Part shown: one piece after another, positions 1,811 to 63,291 of the stretch
Layout of the letters: each line of letters begins with the position of its first letter
Position numbering within the stretch: position 1 is the first letter of the stretch
Source: Vulcanimicrobiota bacterium
Lineage (GTDB): Bacteria; Vulcanimicrobiota; Xenobia; Xenobiales; QWHO01
Assembly: GCA_039809865.1 (NCBI GenBank)
Contig: JBDHVW010000023.1
Coordinates: forward strand, 14,947 to 78,946
Direction: 5' to 3'
DNA length: 64,000 nt
The notes under the pieces: model-generated
Told to the model about the DNA's origin: nothing
Database searches by the model: none
Seen by the model: only the letters and a program-made list of their open reading frames with translations
Position numbers and translations under genes: made by a program

Positions 1811-3292
1811 TTAAGTGTGTACCATGCGCAGGGCGCGCTTGCGGACGAGGTAAGAGAATCCCGCCACCACGGCGATGAGGAGCAGGTTCTCGACCAATCC
1901 GCCCAGGAAGCTGCAGGCGCCCAGCATCAGCAGCATCAGGCCCGCGTAACCGAGCGCGAAGGAGCCGGCCTGGGCCCGGCTGCGAGCCGTCGTGGAGGCC
2001 AACACGCCCAGATAGGCCGCGGCGTAGCAGGCGCCCAGCAGCCAGCAGTAGGCCGGCACAATGGCCAGCGGCGCCAGCGAGCCGAGCTCGAGGCTGACCA
2101 CCGCCGAGTAGAGCACCAGCAGCAGCAGCTCGCTGACGCGGTAGCGCCATCCAAAGGAGGCCCAGCCGTCGACGAACTCCTCGGCCGTCATCTGGGTCAG
2201 GGCCAGCGATTCGAGCGTGCGGCGCTCGCGCTCCTCGACCAGCGAGGTCGAGACGCTCATCGAAGCCATCAGGGGCTGCACCACGAAGAGCGCCGGGAAG
2301 GCGTACCAGGCGATCTCCAGGATATGCTGGGGGAGGAAGAACGCCAGGAGCGCCAGAGTGAGGAAAAACAGGCCGTGGTGGTAGAGGAACACGGTGAAAA
2401 CCCCGCCCCCGGCCAGCTTGCGGGCCAGGCGAGCGCTTTCGCGCACCACGATAGGGTTCTCGTTGAAAGGCGTCTGGGAGCCGTTGCTGCTCGGTTTGCG
2501 CGCCCCCTCCGGGATGGCCGGCGTGGAGTCGCCGCGCATCAGCCACTCCACCGCCAGCTGGCGGCAAGCCATCACGAACGAGAGCACCGCCAGGCCCATC
2601 AGGCAGAGCCCGAAGTCACCCCGGCTGGCCAGTCCGTAGACACCCAGCAAGAGGGAGCTCATGCCGAAAGTCACCGCGACCGGCGAGTCCATGTCGATGC
2701 GGTCGCACACGGCGCAGAGCAGGAAGATGTTGCAGGAGACCAGGTTGATGGCCAGGCAGACCAGATACCAGACCGCGGGCACGATGACCAGCAAAGTGGG
2801 CTCGAGCCGGCCTCCCTGCTGTACGTGCAGGACCAGCAAGCCAAACACCGCCAGGCTGAGGAGAGCCGAGCTCCTGGTGGCGGCGCGCAGGGAGAACATC
2901 GTCACCGAGTCGATCCACTGCGAGGAGGGCATCTTGGTGGTCAGAATCTCGTCGAGGCTGCGGCCGAAGCGCAGCATGCCGATGATGGATGCATCCTGAT
3001 AGGCGGAGAGGAACGGGTACACCAGCGTCACGATCGCGGCCGCGATCAACCACAGGTAAGCGCTGTGGGGGTAGAGGAAAGAAATTCCCGCGACGGCGGC
3101 GCTGGCCAGCACGGTGAGGAAGAGCGACCAGCTCCGGTATCGCCTGCGCGAAGGGCTGGACAACATCAAGGCCAGCGGTGGAGCTTCTTGCGCTTTCAAA
3201 GCGATCGCTTCAGGCACTCTGGGAAATTCGACCGATCGAGCCGAACGCCTTTCGGGCATGAAAAAACCGCCCCTCGCGAGGCGGATTTTCAA
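1811..3292 (-). CDS. Polytopic integral membrane protein of unknown function (about 10 hydrophobic segments)
   Basis: Track ORF 493 aa with many TM-like hydrophobic stretches and balanced composition, co-oriented upstream of the S8 peptidase. Start uncertain (alternative MPERRS at about 3259). The overlapping + ORF 1793..3328 is an R/G/H-rich antisense artefact. Confidence 0.55.
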   Translation of the reverse strand: MKIRLARGGFFMPERRSARSVEFPRVPEAIALKAQEAPPLALMLSSPSRRRYRSWSLFLTVLASAAVAGISFLYPHSAYLWLIAAAIVTLVYPFLSAYQDASIIGMLRFGRSLDEILTTKMPSSQWIDSVTMFSLRAATRSSALLSLAVFGLLVLHVQQGGRLEPTLLVIVPAVWYLVCLAINLVSCNIFLLCAVCDRIDMDSPVAVTFGMSSLLLGVYGLASRGDFGLCLMGLAVLSFVMACRQLAVEWLMRGDSTPAIPEGARKPSSNGSQTPFNENPIVVRESARLARKLAGGGVFTVFLYHHGLFFLTLALLAFFLPQHILEIAWYAFPALFVVQPLMASMSVSTSLVEERERRTLESLALTQMTAEEFVDGWASFGWRYRVSELLLLVLYSAVVSLELGSLAPLAIVPAYCWLLGACYAAAYLGVLASTTARSRAQAGSFALGYAGLMLLMLGACSFLGGLVENLLLIAVVAGFSYLVRKRALRMVHT

Positions 3293-3300
3293 TCGGGGCG

Positions 3301-3810
3301 CTACTTCGTGTACGCCGGCAAGCTATAATACGGGCGGAAGAGCTTTTCTTCGAACATGGAAGCGAAATCCACACCGTAGCGCGTCCAGCCCCAGAGGTGC
3401 CAGTCGCGGCCCATACCCCGGCACTGGAAACGATAGATGGTGTGCTCGTTCTCGCGCAGGAAGCCGGCCACCTCTTGCTTGGTCAGCTCCTGACCCGGAG
3501 CCTGGGCGCTGTAGCTGGCGTGAATCTGAGCCATGACCTCTTGCATCACTTTGCGGGTCACGATCTTGTCGGGCTGCCAGCCGGCATTGGGCGTGATCTC
3601 GACCAGCGTCAGCCTCTCGATAGCCGACTGGGGCGTGTAGACACGTTCCTCGTCATTGGGGCCGGTGGAGTCGAGGTCATACAACTCGGTCGCCAGCATC
3701 AGCGCGAAGTCGGCCTGGGTGCACAGGTCCTTCTTGAGCTTGCCGGGCTGGGCCCAGGTGGGGGCGGACAGCAGGCCCGCTATCAACAGCGTGGTCACCA
3801 GGCGTTTCAT
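3301..3810 (-). CDS. Small secreted protein of unknown function (signal peptide MKRLVTTLLIAGLLSAPTWAQ)
   Basis: The C-terminal 169 codons of track ORF 3301..4500 start at ATG 3810 with a classical signal peptide. The upstream ORF part is R/G/P-rich junk. Confidence 0.6.
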   Translation of the reverse strand: MKRLVTTLLIAGLLSAPTWAQPGKLKKDLCTQADFALMLATELYDLDSTGPNDEERVYTPQSAIERLTLVEITPNAGWQPDKIVTRKVMQEVMAQIHASYSAQAPGQELTKQEVAGFLRENEHTIYRFQCRGMGRDWHLWGWTRYGVDFASMFEEKLFRPYYSLPAYTK

Positions 3811-4031
3811 CGCGTACTTGACTCCTTTTCCATGGTACCCCGCTGTTCGCGGAACAAGTTCAAGCTTCCTGGCGGGCCGAGCGTTCCCCCTCGAAAGTCG
3901 CTCCAATCTACCGTCGCGGCTGGTAGATCGATCACTTCCTTGAATCCCCCGGGCCCTGTATCCTGTGTCCAGAAGATTCGACTTGAAGCCCGACGGATGC
4001 CCCCCCCGACCGTCGGGCTTCTCTCTTTCTC

Positions 4032-7699: not shown

Positions 7700-8012
7700 T
7701 GCTTCAGGTTAGCAGGCGGAATACCGAAAATCAAGCTGTTTATGGCATTGAATATCTCGCTTGGCCCCTGGTGGTAATCGACCCGGAAACCCCACCGGGT
7801 ACAGTCAGAATCGAGGCGCCGACTCACGCATAGCTCGTCCTGGCGGTTTTCCGAAATCCCGATTGAGGGCAGCTCAAGCAAGAAATCACACAATTCGAAC
7901 AGGGTTTCGAAATTGCTCGAGAAAGGCTTTTCCACGGCCCTCGGTGGACATGAAGGCCCCCGAAAGGGAGCGGACGAAGGAACTTCCACTTTCTCCCGGA
8001 GGACTACGTCTC

Positions 8013-11000
8013 ATGGCGGCCAGCCTTGCCGATCTTCAGACCTATATCAGCGAGCAGGTGAGCGGAGAGGAAGCTGCGTTCGTGCGCGGCTTCAGTGAAG
8101 TGCTGTTCGATAAAGCTTATCCGGAGTTCTTGGAGCGGTTCCAGCCCGACGGACTTCTCGCGGTCACCATGGGAGCGCTGAAGTGGATCGAGCAGGGTCC
8201 GCCCGAGCAGATCAAGGTGCGCGTCTACAAGCCGGAGGCTGCTCAGCACGGCTGGACGTGGCCCGGCAGCGCGATGGAGATCCACCTGGGCGACCGGCCC
8301 TTCCTGGTCGACAGCGTCCGCGCCGAGATCCGCCGGCACGGCTACGAAGTCGCCCACAATCTGCATCCCATCCTGCAGATTCACCGGGACGCCGACAGCA
8401 AGATCGTGCGCGCCGGCGGCAAAGGCAAGCCGAACCAGGAGTCTTATCAGCTCTTCTTGCTCGACGAGGCGCTCGAGCCGGCCCGGGCGGCCGAGCTGAC
8501 CGAAGCGGTGACCCGTGTTCTGCAGGATGTCGTTCTGGCCACCGACGACTACCCCAGGATGCGCGAGAAGGCCAACGCCATGGGCGAGTACCTCGAGCAG
8601 CAGCGCGCCGGGGTGCCCGAGGCGCGGGCCAACGAGCTGGCCGAGTACGCGCAGTTCCTGAAGTGGCTGGGGGAGGGCAATTTCGTCTTCCTCGGCTACC
8701 GCGAATACTCCATCGAGGACGCCAAGCTGAGCATGGATGAGGGCTCCAGCCTCGGCATCCTGCGCGGCACCGTGAAGACTTCCAACTACCGCGATCCGGT
8801 GCCGCTGGCCAAGCTGCCCGAGAACCTGCGCCAGCGCATCACCAGCGGTCCCCTGGTGGTGGTCACCAAGTCGAACGCCGAGTCGACCGTCCATCGCCCT
8901 GTGCGCATGGACTACGTCGGGGTCAAGAAGCTCGAGAACGGCCAGGCGGCCGGCGAGCTGCGCCTGCTGGGACTGTTTACCAGCACGGCCCTGGCCACGC
9001 CCTGTAAAGACATTCCCATCCTACGTCTCAAGCTCGCCATCGTGCTGGAGCTGGACGGCAGCCCCGAAGGCTCGCACGACTTCAAGCAGATCGTGACCAC
9101 GTTCAATTCCCTGCCGCGCGAGGAGCTCTTCTGGGGCGAGCCGGAGCAGATTCTGGCCGAGATCCGCACCATCATGCAGCTCGAGTCCGAGAATCGCGTG
9201 CGCCTCACCCTGCGCCGCGATCCGCTGGCCCGAGGCGTGCTGGTGATGGTGGTCATGCCCCGCGAGCGCTTCAACGGCGAGGTTCGTCTCAAGATTCAGG
9301 AGCTGCTGCACGAGCGCTTCAAGGCCGAGCACGTGGACTACCAGCTCTCCATCGGCGAGGACATGTCCCAGGTCCGCTTCCACTTCTTCTTGACGACCGA
9401 GTTCGGGGTCGAGGACACCGACCTCAAGTCGCTGGAAGCCGACGTGGCAGCCCTGACCCGCACCTGGGACGACCTGTTGGAGGAGGCCCTGCGGGCCCGA
9501 TTCGGGGAGAGCAAAGGGCAGCTGCTGGCCGATTGCTATCGGGGCGCCTTCAACGACGCGTACAAAGCCTGCAATAGCCCCGCCTGGGCCGCCGAAGACG
9601 TGGGCCGCATGGAGGAGTTCGACGGGCGTGATTACCTGGTGGGCGTGCACTCCGACGCCGACGTCACCTGGCTCAAGATCTACCATCGGCGCCACAACCT
9701 GACCCTGTCCGACACCATGCCTTTCCTCGAGAACCTCTCGCTGGTCGTGCTCGAGCAGCTCTCCTTCGGGGTGAAGTGCAAGGACAAGTCGCCCTGCGGC
9801 GTCGACGTCTACCGCGTGCTCAATCGCGCCCGTCAGCCGCTGCCCGAGAAGGTCCACGCGCCCCTGTGCGAGGCCCTGGTGGCCCTGCTCGACGGCCGGG
9901 CGGTGGACGACCGTCTCAATGGCCTGGTCCTGGCCGCCAGCCTGGATATCCGGCAGGTGTCGCTGCTGCGGGTCTACCAGCTCTACCTGGGGCAGATCCA
10001 GTCGATCAGCCGGCGCTTCATCAACGACACCATGCTCAAGCATCCCAACTGCGCCCGGCTGCTCTACGACCTGTTCGAGGCCCGCTTCCAGCCCGGGCTG
10101 GCCAACCGCGAGCAGGCGGCGGAGGCGGTCAAAGAACGCTTCATGTCAGCGCTGAACGACGTCACCAGCCTGGTCGAGGACCAGACGCTGCGCGCCCTTT
10201 CCAACCTGATCGACGCCACGCTGCGAGCCAGCTTTTACCTCGGCCACGATCGCATCAGCTTGAAGATCAGCAGCCACCTCGTCTCCTCCATGCCGGAGCC
10301 GCGTCCGCTCTACGAGATCGTGATGGCCGGCCCGGGCGTCGAGGGCATTCACCTGCGCGGCGGCAAGGTCGCCCGCGGCGGACTGCGCTGGAGCGACCGC
10401 CCCGACTTCCGCACCGAGGTGCTGGGCCTGATGAAGACCCAGATGACCAAGAACGCGGTCATCGTGCCGGTCGGCTCGAAAGGCGGCTTCCTCCTCAAGG
10501 ACCCGCCCACCGATCGCGCCGAGCTGGCCGTCTACGTCTCCGAGCGCTACAAGACGTTCATCCGCTCCCTGCTCGACCTGACCGACAACATCGTGGACGG
10601 GAAGGTCGTCCAGAACCGGGATCTGGTCATCTATGACGAGCCCGATCCCTACCTGGTCGTGGCTGCCGATAAAGGCACGGCGACGTTCAGCGACACCGCC
10701 AACGGCGTGGCCCACGAGTTCGGCTTCTGGCTGGGGGACGCGTTCGCGTCGGGCGGCTCGTATGGTTACGACCACAAGAAGGAAGGCATCACCGCCCGGG
10801 GCGCCTGGGAGTGCGTGAAGCGCCATTTCCGCGAGCTCGGGATCGACCTTTTCAAGCCCTTCACGGTGGCCGGCATCGGCGACCTGTCGGGCGACGTGTT
10901 CGGCAACGGCCTGATCTACTCCGACCAGATCAAGATGCTGGCGGCCTTCAACCACCTGCACATCTTCCTGGACCCCGATCCGGATCCGGCCAAGAGCTAC

Positions 11001-12743
11001 GCCGAGCGCAATCGCATGTTCCGGCTGCCGCGCTCGACCTGGGACGACTATGACAAGTCGCTCATCAGTGCGGGCGGCGGCGTGCATCCCCGCCACGCCA
11101 AGAGCATCAAGCTCACTCCCGAGGTGAAGAAGGCCCTGCGGATCGAGGCCGACGCCCTCAGCGGCGACGATCTCGTCAAGGCAATCTTGCGCTCCCCGGT
11201 GGACCTGCTCTGGAACGGCGGCATCGGCACCTACGTGAAGGCCACTTCGGAGCGCAACGCCGAGGTGGGCGACTCCAACAACGACCAGGTGCGCATCGAC
11301 GCCCACGAGCTGCAGTGCCGCGTCATCGGCGAAGGCGGCAACAACGGCCTCACCCAACTGGCCCGCATCGAATACGCGCGGCTGGGCGGGCGCATCAATA
11401 CCGACGCCATCGATAACTCGGCCGGCGTGGACATGTCCGACCACGAGGTCAACATCAAGATCCTGTTCCAGCCTTTGCTGCAGAGCGGCAAGCTTACGCT
11501 CGAGGAGCGCAACACCATCCTGGGCGAGATGACCGACGAGGTCAACAAGCTGGTGCTCTACGACAATTTCCGCCAGTCGATGGCGATCAGTATGGCGGAA
11601 CGACGGTCCAAAGAGGACATCGGGCTGTTCAGCACCCTGATCGACTACCTCGAATGGCGCGGCCCCCTCAAGCGCGAGGTGGAGTTCCTGCCCGACCAGA
11701 AGGCTATTCTGGAGCGCCAGCGCAACGGCGAGGGCCTCACCCGGCCGGAGCTGGCCATCGTGCTGGCCTACAGCAAGATGGGCCTGTATCGGCGCCTGCT
11801 GGACACCGACTTCCCCGAGGAGCCGCACTTCCAGCACTACCTCACCAACTACTTCCCTACGCTGATGCAGCAGCGTTTCCCCGAGGAGATCAAATCGCAC
11901 CAGCTGCGGCGCGAGATCATCGCCACCCAGTTCACCAACAAGGTGGTGGACATTCTGGGCATCACGTTCGTGCACCGCACCATCCGGAACACCGGGGCCA
12001 CGCCCGTGGCGGTGGTGCGCTCGGCGCTGATGGCGCTGGAGATCCTCAACTTCGACTCCCTGCTCGAGGACATCTTCGCGCTGGACAACAAGGTGGCCGC
12101 CGCGGCCCAGTACGACGCGCTCTGGAGCGCGCTGGAGACGGTGGAGAGCGTGGTCAACCAGATGCTGCTCATCCACGGCGTCACCGGCTCTGTCAGCGGG
12201 TTCGTGCAGGCCTATCGCGATCCGCTGATGGACATCCGCAACCGTTTCCCCGACCTCTTGCCGGCCAACGAGCAAGAGCTGTTCAACGCGCGTCGGCGCG
12301 AGTTCGAGACGCATGGTTTCCCGGCCGAGCTCGCGCGGCAGATCGCCACACTGGCTTACTTGCCCAGCGGCCTGGGCGTGGTGGACGCCAGCCGCAAGGC
12401 CCAGGTCGGCATCGAGAAGGCGGCCCAGCACTATTACGCGCTGGGTGACCGCCTGGCGCTCGGGTGGCTGCGCATCCGCCTGGCGCGGCTGGCCGGCACC
12501 GACAAATGGGAGACGATCGCGCTCGAGGGTCTCATCATGGACCTCCGCCAACTGCAGCTCCGGCTCTCGTTGGGCAGCTTGCGGCACGGCAGCTCGCCCC
12601 AGGCCTTCCTGGACAGCCTGGGCGAGCGGGTGCGCCGCTACGAGATGGCTCTGACGGAGATCCGTGAGAGCCAGAAGCTCTCGCTTGCCTCCTGCGGCGT
12701 GCTGGCCCGGCAGCTCTCGCAAATGGCCCAGACCCTGGCATGA
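8013..12743 (+). CDS. gdh: NAD-specific glutamate dehydrogenase, large (about 180 kDa) bacterial type
   Basis: 1576 aa from ATG 8013 ([15 protein letters not shown]). Contains the signature region [38 protein letters not shown] characteristic of the Bac_GDH family. The track ORF start at 7761 is an upstream in-frame extension without a start context. Confidence 0.9.
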   Translation: [1576 protein letters not shown]

Positions 12744-13132
12744 AGGCGCCTACGCTGCAGTATTCCCTGGCCTGCCTGGGAGTGGACGAGCGACATGGCC
12801 CGCCCAGCTTCAACTACGTGTTCTACCGGCTGCCGCTGGCGGGCTTCCCGTATCGGTTTCCGGCCGACGCGGGCTTCTTTCTGGTCAACGCGTGGTGTGA
12901 CGGCGAAGGCACCTTCAAGCAGCGCTGCGTGATCAGCTCGCCCGAGGGCCAGACGTTGATGGATACCGGCCTGCGCGAGTTGTCCCTGGACAGCCCTCAC
13001 GCCATCGACCAGCAAATCTACTTCTTGCAGGGCTTCACGTTCCCCAGCGCCGGGTTCTACCCGGTCCGGGTCTATCTGGACGAGAAGCCCGTGCTGGAAT
13101 ATTTCCTCGAGGCTTACGAGGCCCCGGAATAG
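12740..13132 (+). CDS. Hypothetical protein (130 aa)
   Basis: ATGA overlap with the gdh stop, non-biased composition (W, Y, F, C present), co-oriented. Confidence 0.5.
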   Translation: MKAPTLQYSLACLGVDERHGPPSFNYVFYRLPLAGFPYRFPADAGFFLVNAWCDGEGTFKQRCVISSPEGQTLMDTGLRELSLDSPHAIDQQIYFLQGFTFPSAGFYPVRVYLDEKPVLEYFLEAYEAPE

Positions 13133-13147
13133 AGGAGCGGTACCGGT

Positions 13148-13513
13148 ATGAGCCTGCCAGACTATCTCGGGGACCTGGCGCGCGGGATCCGCGAAGGTCA
13201 GGAATATGACGCGCACGAGTTGGCCGTTGTTTCTCTGCGGGTGACCGAGCACATCGAGAACCTGTATGCCGAGCTGGAGGCCGATCCCGCGCCCGAGGGG
13301 CTGGAGAGCCTGGACGACGCCACCCAGGAGGCGGCGAACCTCTTCGCCGAGGCGGCCGAGCTGATCATGCGGGCCAACCAGGAAGGCGACCCCTCTCTGG
13401 CAGAAAAAGCACTGGAGTGCGTCCAGGAGGCCTCGGACACGTTGCGGCTGGTGCGCCAGAAAGCCCTCGAGAACAAGACCATCCTGGACGAGGAAGTGGG
13501 GGCGAGCTACTGA
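13148..13513 (+). CDS. Hypothetical acidic protein (121 aa)
   Basis: Follows the previous ORF by 15 nt, E/D/A-rich helical composition, same operon orientation. Confidence 0.5.
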   Translation: MSLPDYLGDLARGIREGQEYDAHELAVVSLRVTEHIENLYAELEADPAPEGLESLDDATQEAANLFAEAAELIMRANQEGDPSLAEKALECVQEASDTLRLVRQKALENKTILDEEVGASY

Positions 13514-13514
13514 C

Positions 13515-14225
13515 ATGGATGCGATTGGCGAGCTCAACGTAAGGGTCGGGCTGAACCTCTGGGGCGGCTCCTCGATGGCCCCGATGGCCTTTCGGCGGCC
13601 GGCCGCCCCCGTGGAGGGGATTCACACCATCGAGCGGGCCCGGGTGGCCCAGGAAAACCTGTCCAAGATCCTCTTTGGCTCCGATCTCTCGGCCGACGAG
13701 CTGCAGGCCTACCGGGCGCGGCTGATGCGCGCGATGGACCTCTCCGACAACCTCGAGGATATGGACGATCGTCTGCCCGAGGTCAAGGAGAAGCCCGTCG
13801 GCGGTCCGCGCGGCAGTTATCATGTCGGCAGCGTGCGCTGGACGCCCGCGCCCGAGTTCCAACTCAAACCGCCGCCCGACTCGATCACGACCTCGCCCCT
13901 GCAACAGGTTCATTCGGTCAGCCTGCTGGAGCGGATTAACGCTTGCTCCGATTGCGGCGTGGCCAAGGGTCCCGACCGCACCGAGTGCGGCCAGTGCGGC
14001 GCAGTCGAGCGACAGCGCGTCTCGCGTGTCGGCATTTTCGTGGCTGCGGCCGGCGAGATGGAGGAAGCCGGCGAGGATGCCGTCGACCTTTCTTATGCCG
14101 GCCTGCAGAAGCTCACCGAGCCCCGCCACGGCGCCGAGCTCGTCAGCACCCGCATGCCGCCGCGCCACATGCGCCGCTTCGAGATGCTGAAGCTCGGTCA
14201 GGACCAGGAGCAGAGAGCGGCCTGA
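13515..14225 (+). CDS. Hypothetical protein with C-terminal CxxC-x12-CxxC zinc-ribbon
   Basis: Starts 2 nt after the previous stop. Motif CSDCGVAKGPDRTECGQCG. Confidence 0.5.
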   Translation: MDAIGELNVRVGLNLWGGSSMAPMAFRRPAAPVEGIHTIERARVAQENLSKILFGSDLSADELQAYRARLMRAMDLSDNLEDMDDRLPEVKEKPVGGPRGSYHVGSVRWTPAPEFQLKPPPDSITTSPLQQVHSVSLLERINACSDCGVAKGPDRTECGQCGAVERQRVSRVGIFVAAAGEMEEAGEDAVDLSYAGLQKLTEPRHGAELVSTRMPPRHMRRFEMLKLGQDQEQRAA

Positions 14226-14285
14226 GGTTCCAGCCTTAGCGTTCCTACTTCGCGGGCTCGGCGGCGCGGGTTGTCTTGCTCGCGG

Positions 14286-14600
14286 GCCTCGGGTGGCTAA
14301 CTCAGGTTTGCATTAGCCGAGGTCTACCGGTTCATTGCTCTGGTGGCTGACCGGGGAATCTGCCTTTGTCGGGTCTCTTTCGTCGGCCGGTTTTGCTCGG
14401 GTGGCTGACTCAGATTTTGCCCTTTGGGTCGGTTTTCGTCGGCCCTTTGCTCGGGTGCTGACTCGGCTCGGGTGCTGACTCGGGTTTGCCTTTGTCGGCC
14501 GGTTTTGCTCGGGGGCTGACTCAGGGTTTGCCCTTTCGGGTCTGTTTTCGTCGGCCGTTCTGCTCCGGGTGTCTCGGGGGGCTGAGTCAGGGCCTGGTGG
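14286..14600. repeat. Degenerate tandem repeat array (about 5-6 copies of a 55-60 bp unit with core GCTCGGGTGGCTGACTCAG and TTTGCCCTTTGGGTCGGTTTTCGTCGGCC)
   Basis: Direct reading: the GCTGACTCAG / GGCTGAGTCAG cores recur at about 14399, 14452, 14470, 14510 and 14578, with conserved TTTTGCTCGGG spacers. Confidence 0.7.
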
Positions 14601-15748
14601 CGTCGGGCGCGGGGGTGCTTTCGTTTCGGGGGGGTTGGCGGTGGCAGCTCGGCCCCGGCGTATTCCGGGAATTTGTCGAGATACTTCGTGCGCTTGACCC
14701 ACGGTTTGTGCGGCCGGAAGGGCTTTCTTGGACGGATGGGGCACGGCGTCAGCTTGGGCTCGAAGGTCGCGAAGGCGACCCGTCGAGGCTGTCCGGCCAG
14801 GACCCTTTGCAGCAGCCTCTCATGGCTGCGCCGGGGGATCGGGCACAAGACCCGTTGGGCCTTCTCTTTCTCGAGCTCGGTGAGACACAGTCTCACCTGT
14901 AGGTCTTCATTCAAGCAGGTCAGGAAATCGCGGGCCTCGGAGGTCCACAGGTCGCCCGCTCGGTCCCAGTAGGGCGAGTTCGGCCGGGCCAGCTTGCGGT
15001 CGCGAGCCAACCCGCGCAGCAAGGGGATCAACGCCGCCCTGCCGTTTCCCGCTTGCAGCCAGGCCGCCCCCTCGTGATAATGGCGTTCGGCTCGGCCCAT
15101 CGGAACCTGTCGGTATTGCTCCACAGCGTCGACCGGTCGCCCCGCCCGTTGCAGCGCCTCTCCGTAGGCCAGCCGCTCCTCGGCGCTGGGACACTTTTTG
15201 ACAAGCTCGGCCCGCACCGGCAGCGCCTCCTGCCGCTGGTGCCGACGCTCGAGAACCTCCGCCAATGGCTTCAGGCCTTCGGGACCCGCCTTCCGCAGGA
15301 GTCTCTCGGCCTTCTCGAGGTGGCCCGCCTCGGCCAGCCTCAACGCCCGCTCCACGCGCGTGCCGCTCCGGAGCCTCCGCTCAAGCTGTTGACCGAGCTT
15401 CAGCAGCTCTCGTTGCGCCTCTCGTAACCGCTGGGGGTCGTGCTCGGCCGCGAGACTGGCCGCCAGGCTACGCGCTGCTCGGACGACGCGCGGAGCGCGT
15501 TTGGGAGCCGACTCCGCCTCGCCCACGGCTCTTTCCGCCCGCTCGCGCAGTGCGGTCCAGTCGGGCTTGAGCTCGGGGAACCGGCTCTGGACGTGCTCCT
15601 GCAACTCCGTCCAACGCTCGCTCTGAAGCGCTCTCGCCAGGCCAACTCTGTCGCCGAAAGCCCAGATTTGGCACTGGCGCACGCTTCTGCGCCCATCTCG
15701 CTGGGAGTGGACCAGGCTGTAGCGGTGACCTTTGTGCAGAAGAAACAT
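14324..15748 (-). CDS. Hypothetical Arg/Glu-rich helical protein with repetitive Pro/Gln/Thr-rich C-terminal tail
   Basis: Track ORF 474 aa. The N-terminal 380 aa are non-biased (W, Y, C, H present). The tail is encoded by the tandem DNA repeat array at 14286..14600, so the 3' end is uncertain. Confidence 0.4.
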   Translation of the reverse strand: MFLLHKGHRYSLVHSQRDGRRSVRQCQIWAFGDRVGLARALQSERWTELQEHVQSRFPELKPDWTALRERAERAVGEAESAPKRAPRVVRAARSLAASLAAEHDPQRLREAQRELLKLGQQLERRLRSGTRVERALRLAEAGHLEKAERLLRKAGPEGLKPLAEVLERRHQRQEALPVRAELVKKCPSAEERLAYGEALQRAGRPVDAVEQYRQVPMGRAERHYHEGAAWLQAGNGRAALIPLLRGLARDRKLARPNSPYWDRAGDLWTSEARDFLTCLNEDLQVRLCLTELEKEKAQRVLCPIPRRSHERLLQRVLAGQPRRVAFATFEPKLTPCPIRPRKPFRPHKPWVKRTKYLDKFPEYAGAELPPPTPPKRKHPRARRHQALTQPPETPGAERPTKTDPKGQTLSQPPSKTGRQRQTRVSTRAESAPEQRADENRPKGQNLSQPPEQNRPTKETRQRQIPRSATRAMNR

Positions 15749-15758
15749 CGTCGATAAC

Positions 15759-15793
15759 CTTGTAGTTCAGAAATTCCAAATCGGAACTACAAG
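15759..15793. promoter_or_regulatory. Perfect 10-bp inverted repeat CTTGTAGTTC-N15-GAACTACAAG just upstream of the start of the 14324..15748 gene
   Basis: Seen directly. Candidate operator or 5'-UTR hairpin in an AT-richer intergenic stretch (15749..16087). Confidence 0.4.
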
Positions 15794-16087
15794 ATCCTCT
15801 ACGGCAAGTTGTACCTCTAGCGACTGAACCTGGCTGGAGGGTGATGAGGCCTGTGCTGGCGTTCGTGCCAATCGCATTGCCGAAGAGGCCTCCCCGGCTT
15901 AAAGTGCTTCGAGCACGAAAGCTTGTGGAGTCGGCGCCTGGTCGCGAAGATGTTCGTGTGCCTTGGCGCCCGCCCCGTCTTGTTCCCCACGCCGGCTCGC
16001 GCGCAGGCGTTCTCGACTCGAAGCTGTTCTGGGGCCGAGCTTGGACCGTGAGCCAGGAGTTCGACCGGATGATTCGAAACGCCCCGG

Positions 16088-16699
16088 ATGAAGAAACTCA
16101 CAACGTTTTTGCTCGTTCTTGCTCTGGCGGCGTTGGTTCAGGCCCAGGCCATCCAGGTCAGCGTCAATCGGCCTGCCAACGGCGCAACCGTCGAAAAGAA
16201 GTTTACCCTCACCGGTACCGCCACGCCTTCGATGATCGTCGAGTGCACCGGCGACCTGCGCGGCAGCGTCTATGCGGACGCGTCCGGCAACTGGCGCATT
16301 CCGCTCGACGCCACGTCTCTCGAGACCGGCGCGGTCATCAACCTGACCGTGCAGGCCCGTGACAATGCCAACAACCGCAGCCGCTCCGTGCAGGTGCAGT
16401 ATGCTCTCAAAGATGGTACGGGCAGCGACGTCACCATTCAGGTGAGCGTGAACACGCCCGCCAACGGCGCCACGGTCGGGAACAGCTTGACGCTGCGGGG
16501 CACGGCGACCCCCGAGATGATCGTGGAGTGCACCGGCACCCTGCGCGGCAGCGTTTACGCTGACAAGCAGGGCAACTGGAGCATTCCGCTCGACGCCAGC
16601 GGCGTGGCCGGGGGCGCTCTCATCAACCTGAGCGTCATGGCCAAGGACAGCTACGGTCACGTGAGCCGGACGGTCACGGTCGAATACGCCAAACGATGA
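16088..16699 (+). CDS. Secreted protein with two tandem about 95-aa Ig-like repeats
   Basis: Signal peptide MKKLTTFLLVLALAALVQAQA. Internal duplication (QVSVNRPANGATV...IVECTGDLRGSVYAD and QVSVNTPANGATV...IVECTGTLRGSVYAD). Confidence 0.75.
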   Translation: MKKLTTFLLVLALAALVQAQAIQVSVNRPANGATVEKKFTLTGTATPSMIVECTGDLRGSVYADASGNWRIPLDATSLETGAVINLTVQARDNANNRSRSVQVQYALKDGTGSDVTIQVSVNTPANGATVGNSLTLRGTATPEMIVECTGTLRGSVYADKQGNWSIPLDASGVAGGALINLSVMAKDSYGHVSRTVTVEYAKR

Positions 16700-62901: not shown

Positions 62902-63291
62902 TCATAACTGCGTTTTGACTTTCTGACTCAGACCTCGAATCAGGCGCCGAACTTCCACTATAGAGTTGCTAGTCGCTGCAATATCCGGTTCTCTGAGGTA
63001 TTCTAGCTGCACGGCAACCTCCAGGAGCGTGTCCAGTTCGGCCAGGCTGCCCCGTGCGATACTCAGATGACTTAGAAACGGTTTCGGGAGTTCACGGGCT
63101 TGGCCTTCGGCGATGTTTGCCGGCACTGATATGGCAGCTCTTTGAATCTGGCTGGCCAGGCCAAAACGCTCTTCACGAGGGAGTTGGTTGGTAAGTTTAT
63201 AGACCCTCGTAACGAGTCCCATAGCTCTTTGCCAGACGATCAATTCCCTGTAACTCCGAGTCTTATCTTGACCCCCCGTCCCCTCTCCCAT
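62902..63291 (-). CDS. Four-helix-bundle protein (TIGR02436 / 23S rRNA intervening-sequence protein family)
   Basis: ELIVWQRAMGLVTRVYKLTNQLPREERFGLASQIQRAAISVPANIAEGQAR is the family hallmark. Confidence 0.8.
   Translation of the reverse strand: MGEGTGGQDKTRSYRELIVWQRAMGLVTRVYKLTNQLPREERFGLASQIQRAAISVPANIAEGQARELPKPFLSHLSIARGSLAELDTLLEVAVQLEYLREPDIAATSNSIVEVRRLIRGLSQKVKTQL

Follow-up and report, generated by a model that had tools for sequence, protein, structure and literature searches.

The minus-strand open reading frame (ORF) at positions 14324-15748 of the window, by which we mean the whole stretch of 64,000 nucleotides analysed here, runs at its 3′ end into a degenerate tandem repeat, and the locus therefore raises the question of whether this repeat is a selected part of the encoded protein, a DNA element with a role of its own, or neither. 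An earlier note, made from the letters of the DNA, had read the array on the minus strand as the low-complexity tail of a 474-aa ORF, but had also considered that it could be a cluster of binding sites or a decayed REP-like element through which the ORF reads by chance. We favour, with a probability of roughly 70%, the interpretation that the array is an ordinary, lineage-specific minisatellite decaying at the 3′ end of a TPR gene, where it is translated as a disordered, basic and strain-variable tail.

Architecture of the array and its cores

Tandem Repeats Finder (TRF) placed a repeat at 14361-14569 (period 56, 3.7 copies, 69% matches, score 196), and a repeat-family search (families D1-D6) widened it to 14273-14594. 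Together with an alignment of the units, these searches define a degenerate direct-repeat array at 14273-14600, in minus-strand sense, with about 5.5 units and an ancestral unit of ~57 nt. The array described in the earlier note, its 55-60 bp period, its five to six imperfect units and its spacers TTTGCTCGGG and TTTCGTCGGCC were all recovered. The features on which the argument depends are as follows, where haplotype A is that of the window and haplotype B is the second allele described below.

13515-14225, plus strand: convergent neighbour gene encoding 236 aa, the last of a conserved GDH-DUF6941-121aa-236aa cluster
14288-14309, plus strand: core of the terminal degenerate unit, CTCGGGTGGCTAACTCAGGTTT, 91% identical to 14396-14417 (family D3)
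14296, plus strand: degenerate core GCTAACTCAG
14313-14335, minus strand: stops in all three frames (TGA, TAG, TAA) within 23 nt
14324-14600, minus strand: tail as translated, ~90 aa with abundant Pro, Gln, Arg, Thr and Lys; each allele gives a net charge of +8 to +10
14346-14355, plus strand: degenerate core GCTGACCGGG of the penultimate unit (family D5, unit alignment)
14404-14413, plus strand: core GCTGACTCAG, broken in haplotype B by a substitution at 14405
14449-14483, plus strand: perfect 17-nt sub-duplication, GCTCGGGTGCTGACTCG twice (TRF, 100% match), carrying two CTGACTCGG cores
14457 and 14474, plus strand: cores GCTGACTCGG
14515-14524, plus strand: core GCTGACTCAG, read Leu-Ser-Gln, broken in haplotype B by a substitution at 14523
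14581-14590, plus strand: core GCTGAGTCAG of the unit nearest the conserved domain, read Leu-Thr-Gln
14601-15748, minus strand: host gene body, conserved, with a beta-sheet at the N-terminus and TPR-like helical repeats after it, ending with the basic motif PPKRKHPRAR

The sense (minus) strand of the array is strongly skewed in composition (C 36%, A 33%, G 26% and T 5%, or 5.1% to one decimal), and the AT skew of the plus strand falls as low as -0.76. The array is not confined to the ORF, because its terminal unit at 14288-14309 sits past the stop codon, within the 98-nt spacer between the two convergent genes; read in the usual phase, a Gln codon CAG has become TAG in this unit.

The best-conserved part of the unit in the alignment is a 20-nt segment that contains the core, and a core-like form of the array units can also be written TTTGCTCGGGNGGCTGACTC. 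Matches to GCTGACTCRG numbered 4 in the window against 0.47 expected, every one of them inside the array, while CTGASTCAG gave 4 matches against 0.75 expected, with three of the four in the array. The only CTGACTCAG outside the array lies at 62923-62931 as a lone 9-mer, its flanks unlike the unit, and is consistent with chance. The palindromic cores of the earlier note are thus present as CTGA(C/G)TCAG-type sequences, but the palindrome itself (CTGA-N-TCAG) has just 4+4 nt flanking an unpaired centre, and only three units keep it intact. By our own estimate such a 4+4 palindrome is expected in about one random 57-nt unit in five, and it recurs in the array because the units, having arisen by tandem copying, are copies of one another.

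Local alignments revealed no significant similarity of the unit to the 3′ ends of orthologues or to upstream coding sequence, and the array and the sequence following it showed no detectable similarity to orthologues' 3′ ends. The idea that the gene's own 3′ end, or its segment coding for PPKRKHPRAR, gave rise to the unit was rejected since these alignments were no better than those of shuffled sequences.

Host gene, reading frame and relatives

The ORF at 14324-15748 was confirmed at 474 aa, and the array makes up its last ~90 codons on the minus strand, as the earlier note had proposed. Foldseek matched the host protein to consensus TPR proteins, the OGT TPR domain and MamA, and its relatives match TPR families in Pfam. 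The tail, of which NLSQPPEQNRPTK is an example peptide, is predicted to be disordered (AlphaFold2 pLDDT of 31-37 for residues 388-474).

The relation of the array to the reading frame is irregular. Distances from core to core (50, 58, 53, 17, 41 and 66 nt) do not keep to multiples of three, and the one ORF reads the same core in three phases, as CTG-AGT-CAG, CGA-GTC-AGC and GAG-TCA-GCA. The codon signal is lost over the same stretch. GC3 falls from ~0.8 in the gene body to 0.57-0.67 in the array, and by a codon log-likelihood for which six long ORFs of the window served as training set, the frame of the ORF is preferred as far as ~14650 and none is preferred beyond it, which is the outcome of the comparison between tail and body that the earlier note had suggested. 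An open frame is cheap in such a sequence because the sense strand contains only 5% T: in shuffled arrays at 5.1% T, a given frame was open in 28% of cases and at least two frames were open in 18%, and two of the three frames are open in the real array. The cluster of stops at 14313-14335 covers every frame and so brings both haplotypes to an end a few codons apart (474 versus 466 aa), haplotype A at the TAG of 14324-14326 and haplotype B at a TGA just upstream.

Relatives of the host protein place the boundary between body and tail at the same point. Only three were returned from a database of 5.8 billion proteins, namely P0001 (96% identity, 466 aa), P0002 (52% identity, 404 aa) and P0003 (48% identity, 403 aa), and the latter two end 6-12 residues past the PRAR of the PPKRKHPRAR motif, where the array starts in the window. 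Searching with a profile of the conserved body (full HMMER search) yielded 20 relatives at E ≤ 1e-30, the best-matching of which are mostly 300-400 aa long, with the match ending near the end of the protein. The repeat tail was likewise absent from the 12 distant members of the wider TPR family that were read (327-395 aa), some of which end with the same basic RKHPRxR motif, and the 3′ ends of orthologous genes contained no tandem repeat; the comparison of orthologous loci proposed in the earlier note therefore yielded P0002, P0003 and 12 family members without the tail, rather than a tail kept under purifying selection. A word-indexed search of the same 5.8-billion-protein database with the tail peptide returned nothing, and is uninformative because it did not return even P0001 (phmmer E = 8.8e-23). 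When the 474-aa protein was compared with the contigs of GTDB representative genomes no relative was found, and the window's own locus was likewise not returned.

A different repeat occurs near one of these relatives: L003 (3448-3655) and L004 (3464-3587) carry a 48-nt tandem repeat of 16 codons (in L003, 85% match and ~3.9 copies) inside a large minus-strand gene adjoining the P0003 orthologue, and its period, unlike that of the array, is a multiple of three.

On the other side of the array lies a plus-strand cluster (7761-14225) that encodes an NAD-glutamate dehydrogenase, a DUF6941 protein (130 aa), a 121-aa protein and the 236-aa protein, the order of which is kept in relatives whose 236-aa protein is as little as 74% identical (L065, L067-L075). 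In relatives whose 236-aa proteins are 83-85% and 74% identical, the cluster persists, but another gene follows it and neither TPR gene nor array is present, which places the host TPR gene at a synteny breakpoint. A link between the array and the convergent 236-aa gene was rejected on the same evidence, since the orthologous loci have other downstream genes and no array. The source names of two homologues are ‘bacterium CPR1’ and ‘Candidatus Eremiobacterota bacterium’.

The codon-usage score of the TPR gene (14324-15748) is far below those of its neighbours, and the gene fell short of a crude gene-finder cut-off cleared by 45 other ORFs, yet it has clear orthologues; the low codon score and the synteny breakpoint suggest that it may have been acquired recently. 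Several further observations concern the surrounding genes. The 236-aa protein contains a zinc-ribbon-like motif (CSDCG...CGQCG) and has no Pfam match. In the relative L065, a different protein (2812-3870, minus strand) is encoded convergently on the 236-aa gene and carries N-terminal proline-rich SVAPP/KPPS repeats, making it another low-complexity protein at the equivalent position. The glutamate dehydrogenase ORF (7761-12743, plus strand; 1660 aa, TTG start) probably begins too far upstream, with Pfam domains from residue 111 and relatives of 1589 aa. Upstream of the TPR gene, a plus-strand ORF at 16088-16699 encodes a secreted protein with a signal-peptide-like N-terminus and two near-identical bacterial Ig-like (Big_6) domains, an internal duplication of ~95 aa.

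Variation between haplotypes

Public assemblies with the same locus, found via the window's proteins as independent contigs from ENA and Logan, represent haplotype A (the window, L054 and L056), haplotype B (L001/L055 and L057) and a partial intermediate (L058); the array is known from these two or three haplotypes of one species only. Over 3.39 kb, haplotypes A and B differ at 38 aligned positions. Their differences are concentrated in the array, where 315 nt contain four substitutions and three indels of lengths that are not multiples of three (net 16 nt, 1 nt and 1 nt), whereas the 2305 nt of coding sequence on its two sides contain 10 substitutions and no indels (Fisher test, P = 0.002 with all events counted and 0.0017 with indels alone); the remaining A/B indels are found only in the upstream intergenic region. 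The net 16-nt difference reflects the absence from haplotype B of one copy of the 17-nt sub-duplication at 14449-14483. Because each haplotype recurs in independent assemblies, from ENA and from Logan, these differences are real alleles, and sequencing error was rejected as an explanation for the 1-nt homopolymer indels.

Two of the four substitutions in the array are synonymous in the frame used. Those at 14405 and 14523 destroy perfect palindromic cores (two of four substitutions falling within 27 nt; chance P ~0.04), and GCTGAGTCAG at 14581 is the sole perfect palindromic core left in haplotype B. The A/B indels sum to 15 nt (17-1-1), and both alleles regain the frame and share a 25-aa stretch, PKGQNLSQPPEQNRPTKETRQRQIP, with part of the tail read in different frames in A and B. 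Such compensating indels are the chief argument for a selected tail, but as evidence they are weak and compatible with chance.

Five independent short-read contigs from Logan (L060-L064) break off 96 nt beyond the stop codon of the 236-aa gene, at the array's edge (~14321); short-read assembly seems to fail there because of the repeat or of its allelic variants.

Competing explanations and known systems

These observations describe an array that is young and fast-mutating and that belongs to one uncultured bacterial lineage. We infer that it grows, shrinks and gains small indels through replication slippage or unequal recombination between its direct repeats. As the sense strand is poor in T (5%) and thus offers few stops, ribosomes would run about 90 codons beyond PPKRKHPRAR until they meet the stops at 14313-14335, and the product would be a normal TPR protein with a disordered basic tail, whose sequence would be set by whichever frame is open, would differ among co-occurring strains and would probably be nearly neutral. 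The CTGA(C/G)TCAG core would then be a by-product of the copied unit, supplying Leu-Ser/Thr-Gln codons, rather than a recognition site. Of the non-coding read-through considered in the earlier note, what stands is a repeat at the DNA level without coding constraint, as evidenced by tail-less orthologues, scrambled frames and indels that are not multiples of three, and its chance open frame is plausible.

An alternative interpretation is that the tail is a selected, disordered, basic and proline-rich C-terminal extension, serving for instance as a linker, as a tether to nucleic acids or the envelope, or as a variable tail at the surface, with selection on its composition and openness and not on its exact sequence. 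Consistent with this, the ORF is open in both haplotypes and the compensating indels (15 nt) restore the shared 25-aa stretch, units in the TGA-prone phase have CGA rather than TGA, the 5% T content keeps two frames stop-free, the native C-terminus of the family is also basic and both alleles keep a charge of +8 to +10, and stops in three frames follow directly after the array. The retained frame and the use of CGA for TGA could hint at selection for openness, but each is expected fairly often by chance or ascertainment. We consider a selected tail unlikely because it is missing in all other family members examined, its frames are scrambled among units and, in part, between haplotypes, the codon-usage signal of the host is absent, one unit lies beyond the stop codon, and a chance open frame is in any case likely at 0.28 per frame (and at least two frames in 18% of shuffles).

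Less easily reconciled with the data is the idea that the array belongs to a dispersed family of intergenic repeats (MIRU- or REP/BIME-like), of which one copy or a local cluster would have landed at the 3′ end of the gene. The position between convergent ends and the 40-100 bp unit size would fit MIRU-type minisatellites (PMC5056196), and the location of the host gene at a synteny breakpoint would be compatible with such an element. Within the 64-kb window, however, there is no second copy: the 22-nt core has no other match at up to three mismatches, and blastn with the array as query found nothing in the remainder of the window. Scanning JGI metagenome contigs and GTDB representative genomes with an 18-base core, TTTGCTCGGGN{1,2}GCTGACTC, gave 31 metagenome and 17 genome loci, but these 48 are single matches in unrelated taxa and are attributed to chance because blastn similarity extends only 20-34 nt around the core. 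Neither of these DNA-scanned collections returned the window's own locus, which makes this a weak negative result and leaves some room for a dispersed family. The units also lack stem-loop potential, and the sole inverted repeat is a chance 12-nt pair lying 344 nt apart; with no stem-loop and no second copy in 64 kb, the decayed REP-like element suggested in the earlier note is not supported. Supply et al. are said to have described, in 1997, MIRU small ORFs that overlap the stop and start codons of their neighbours, an arrangement that cannot apply here because the flanking genes are convergent. Taken together, membership of a dispersed family is quite unlikely.

We regard as very unlikely the further possibility that the locus is a frameshift-tolerant tail cassette, in which a T-poor minisatellite with two stop-free frames and a three-frame stop cap would turn slippage indels into alternative disordered C-termini of a conserved TPR protein in co-occurring strains. 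Were this so, the locus would be an instance of contingency-type C-terminal variation, or of new coding sequence caught arising from a non-coding repeat.

A functional non-coding role, either as a protein-binding cluster on the CTGAnTCAG cores or as a structured or sponge-like 3′ untranslated RNA of either gene, is highly improbable. The cores do occur above chance in the window, the 20-nt segment containing them is the best conserved of the unit, and the plus strand folds slightly better than shuffles (z = -1.79). Core enrichment is nevertheless explained by tandem copying, and the loss of two perfect cores to the four haplotype substitutions, with one left intact in B (P ~0.04), is the opposite of what is expected of a selected binding site and therefore argues against such a role, as does the alteration of core spacing by indels that are not multiples of three. 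The array also lies between two 3′ ends and not at a promoter; no promoter-like sites were found in 13400-16200 and no terminator-like sites or hairpins in the array. The binding-site cluster of the earlier note is thus disfavoured both by the core losses and by the convergent setting. A structured RNA was rejected, since neither fold is significant (z = -0.71 for the sense and -1.79 for the antisense strand) and no Rfam family matches: Rfam 15 gave no gathering-level match in the whole window, and the matches within 14100-14800 are at chance level only (E = 0.55 and 4.5), both almost wholly outside the array. Two other identities were rejected: a CRISPR array (22-nt repeat and 34-nt spacer), because the ‘spacers’ are themselves repeated (families D1, D2 and D7; unit alignment), and the target of a diversity-generating retroelement, because no template copy of the region exists anywhere in the window.

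Taking the array as a decaying minisatellite, we caution against treating the last ~90 codons of the TPR gene as a conserved domain and against annotating the palindromic cores as regulatory sites. Its VNTR-like polymorphism makes the locus a natural marker of strains in an uncultured population, and it appears to break short-read assemblies; it is also a small, clean illustration of how a T-poor repeat absorbed into an ORF adds a disordered tail without coding constraint.

Among known systems, low-complexity or tandem-repeat C-terminal tails of bacterial proteins are likewise continuous with a conserved domain, rich in Pro, Gln, Thr, Lys and Arg and predicted to be disordered. In genuine coding repeats, however, the unit length is divisible by three, the frame stays constant, codon usage is that of the host and orthologues conserve the repeat, and the array has none of these four properties. 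C-terminal extension by read-through, following the loss or displacement of a stop, resembles the locus in leaving about 90 codons without coding signature past the usual end of the family. REP units are imperfect palindromes of 20-40 nt that form stable stem-loops and occur in hundreds of dispersed copies. REP/BIME elements and the array share a position at gene 3′ ends between convergent units and short repeats with a palindromic motif, but the arms in the array are only 4 bp, its folding is not better than that of shuffles and the 64-kb window holds no other copy.

The closest known kind is the bacterial minisatellite, or VNTR, of the MIRU type. MIRUs are direct tandem repeats of 40-100 bp without an obvious palindrome, scattered over many intergenic loci (~41), between co-directional genes and in a fixed orientation to the adjacent gene (PMC5056196). 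Like the array, they are 40-100 bp direct repeats with no substantial palindrome (Supply et al. 1997, 2000, per PMC5056196), found in GC-rich genomes beside gene ends, polymorphic among strains and readable as small ORFs. Where MIRUs are dispersed over ~41 loci, one locus is known for the array in the 64 kb of genome scanned; where they lie between co-directional genes with small ORFs of their own, the array has convergent flanks, continues the upstream ORF and is followed by no start codon to which it could couple. Finally, MIRU polymorphism is mainly in the copy number of whole units, whereas the alleles described here differ by a 17-nt sub-unit duplication and 1-nt indels.
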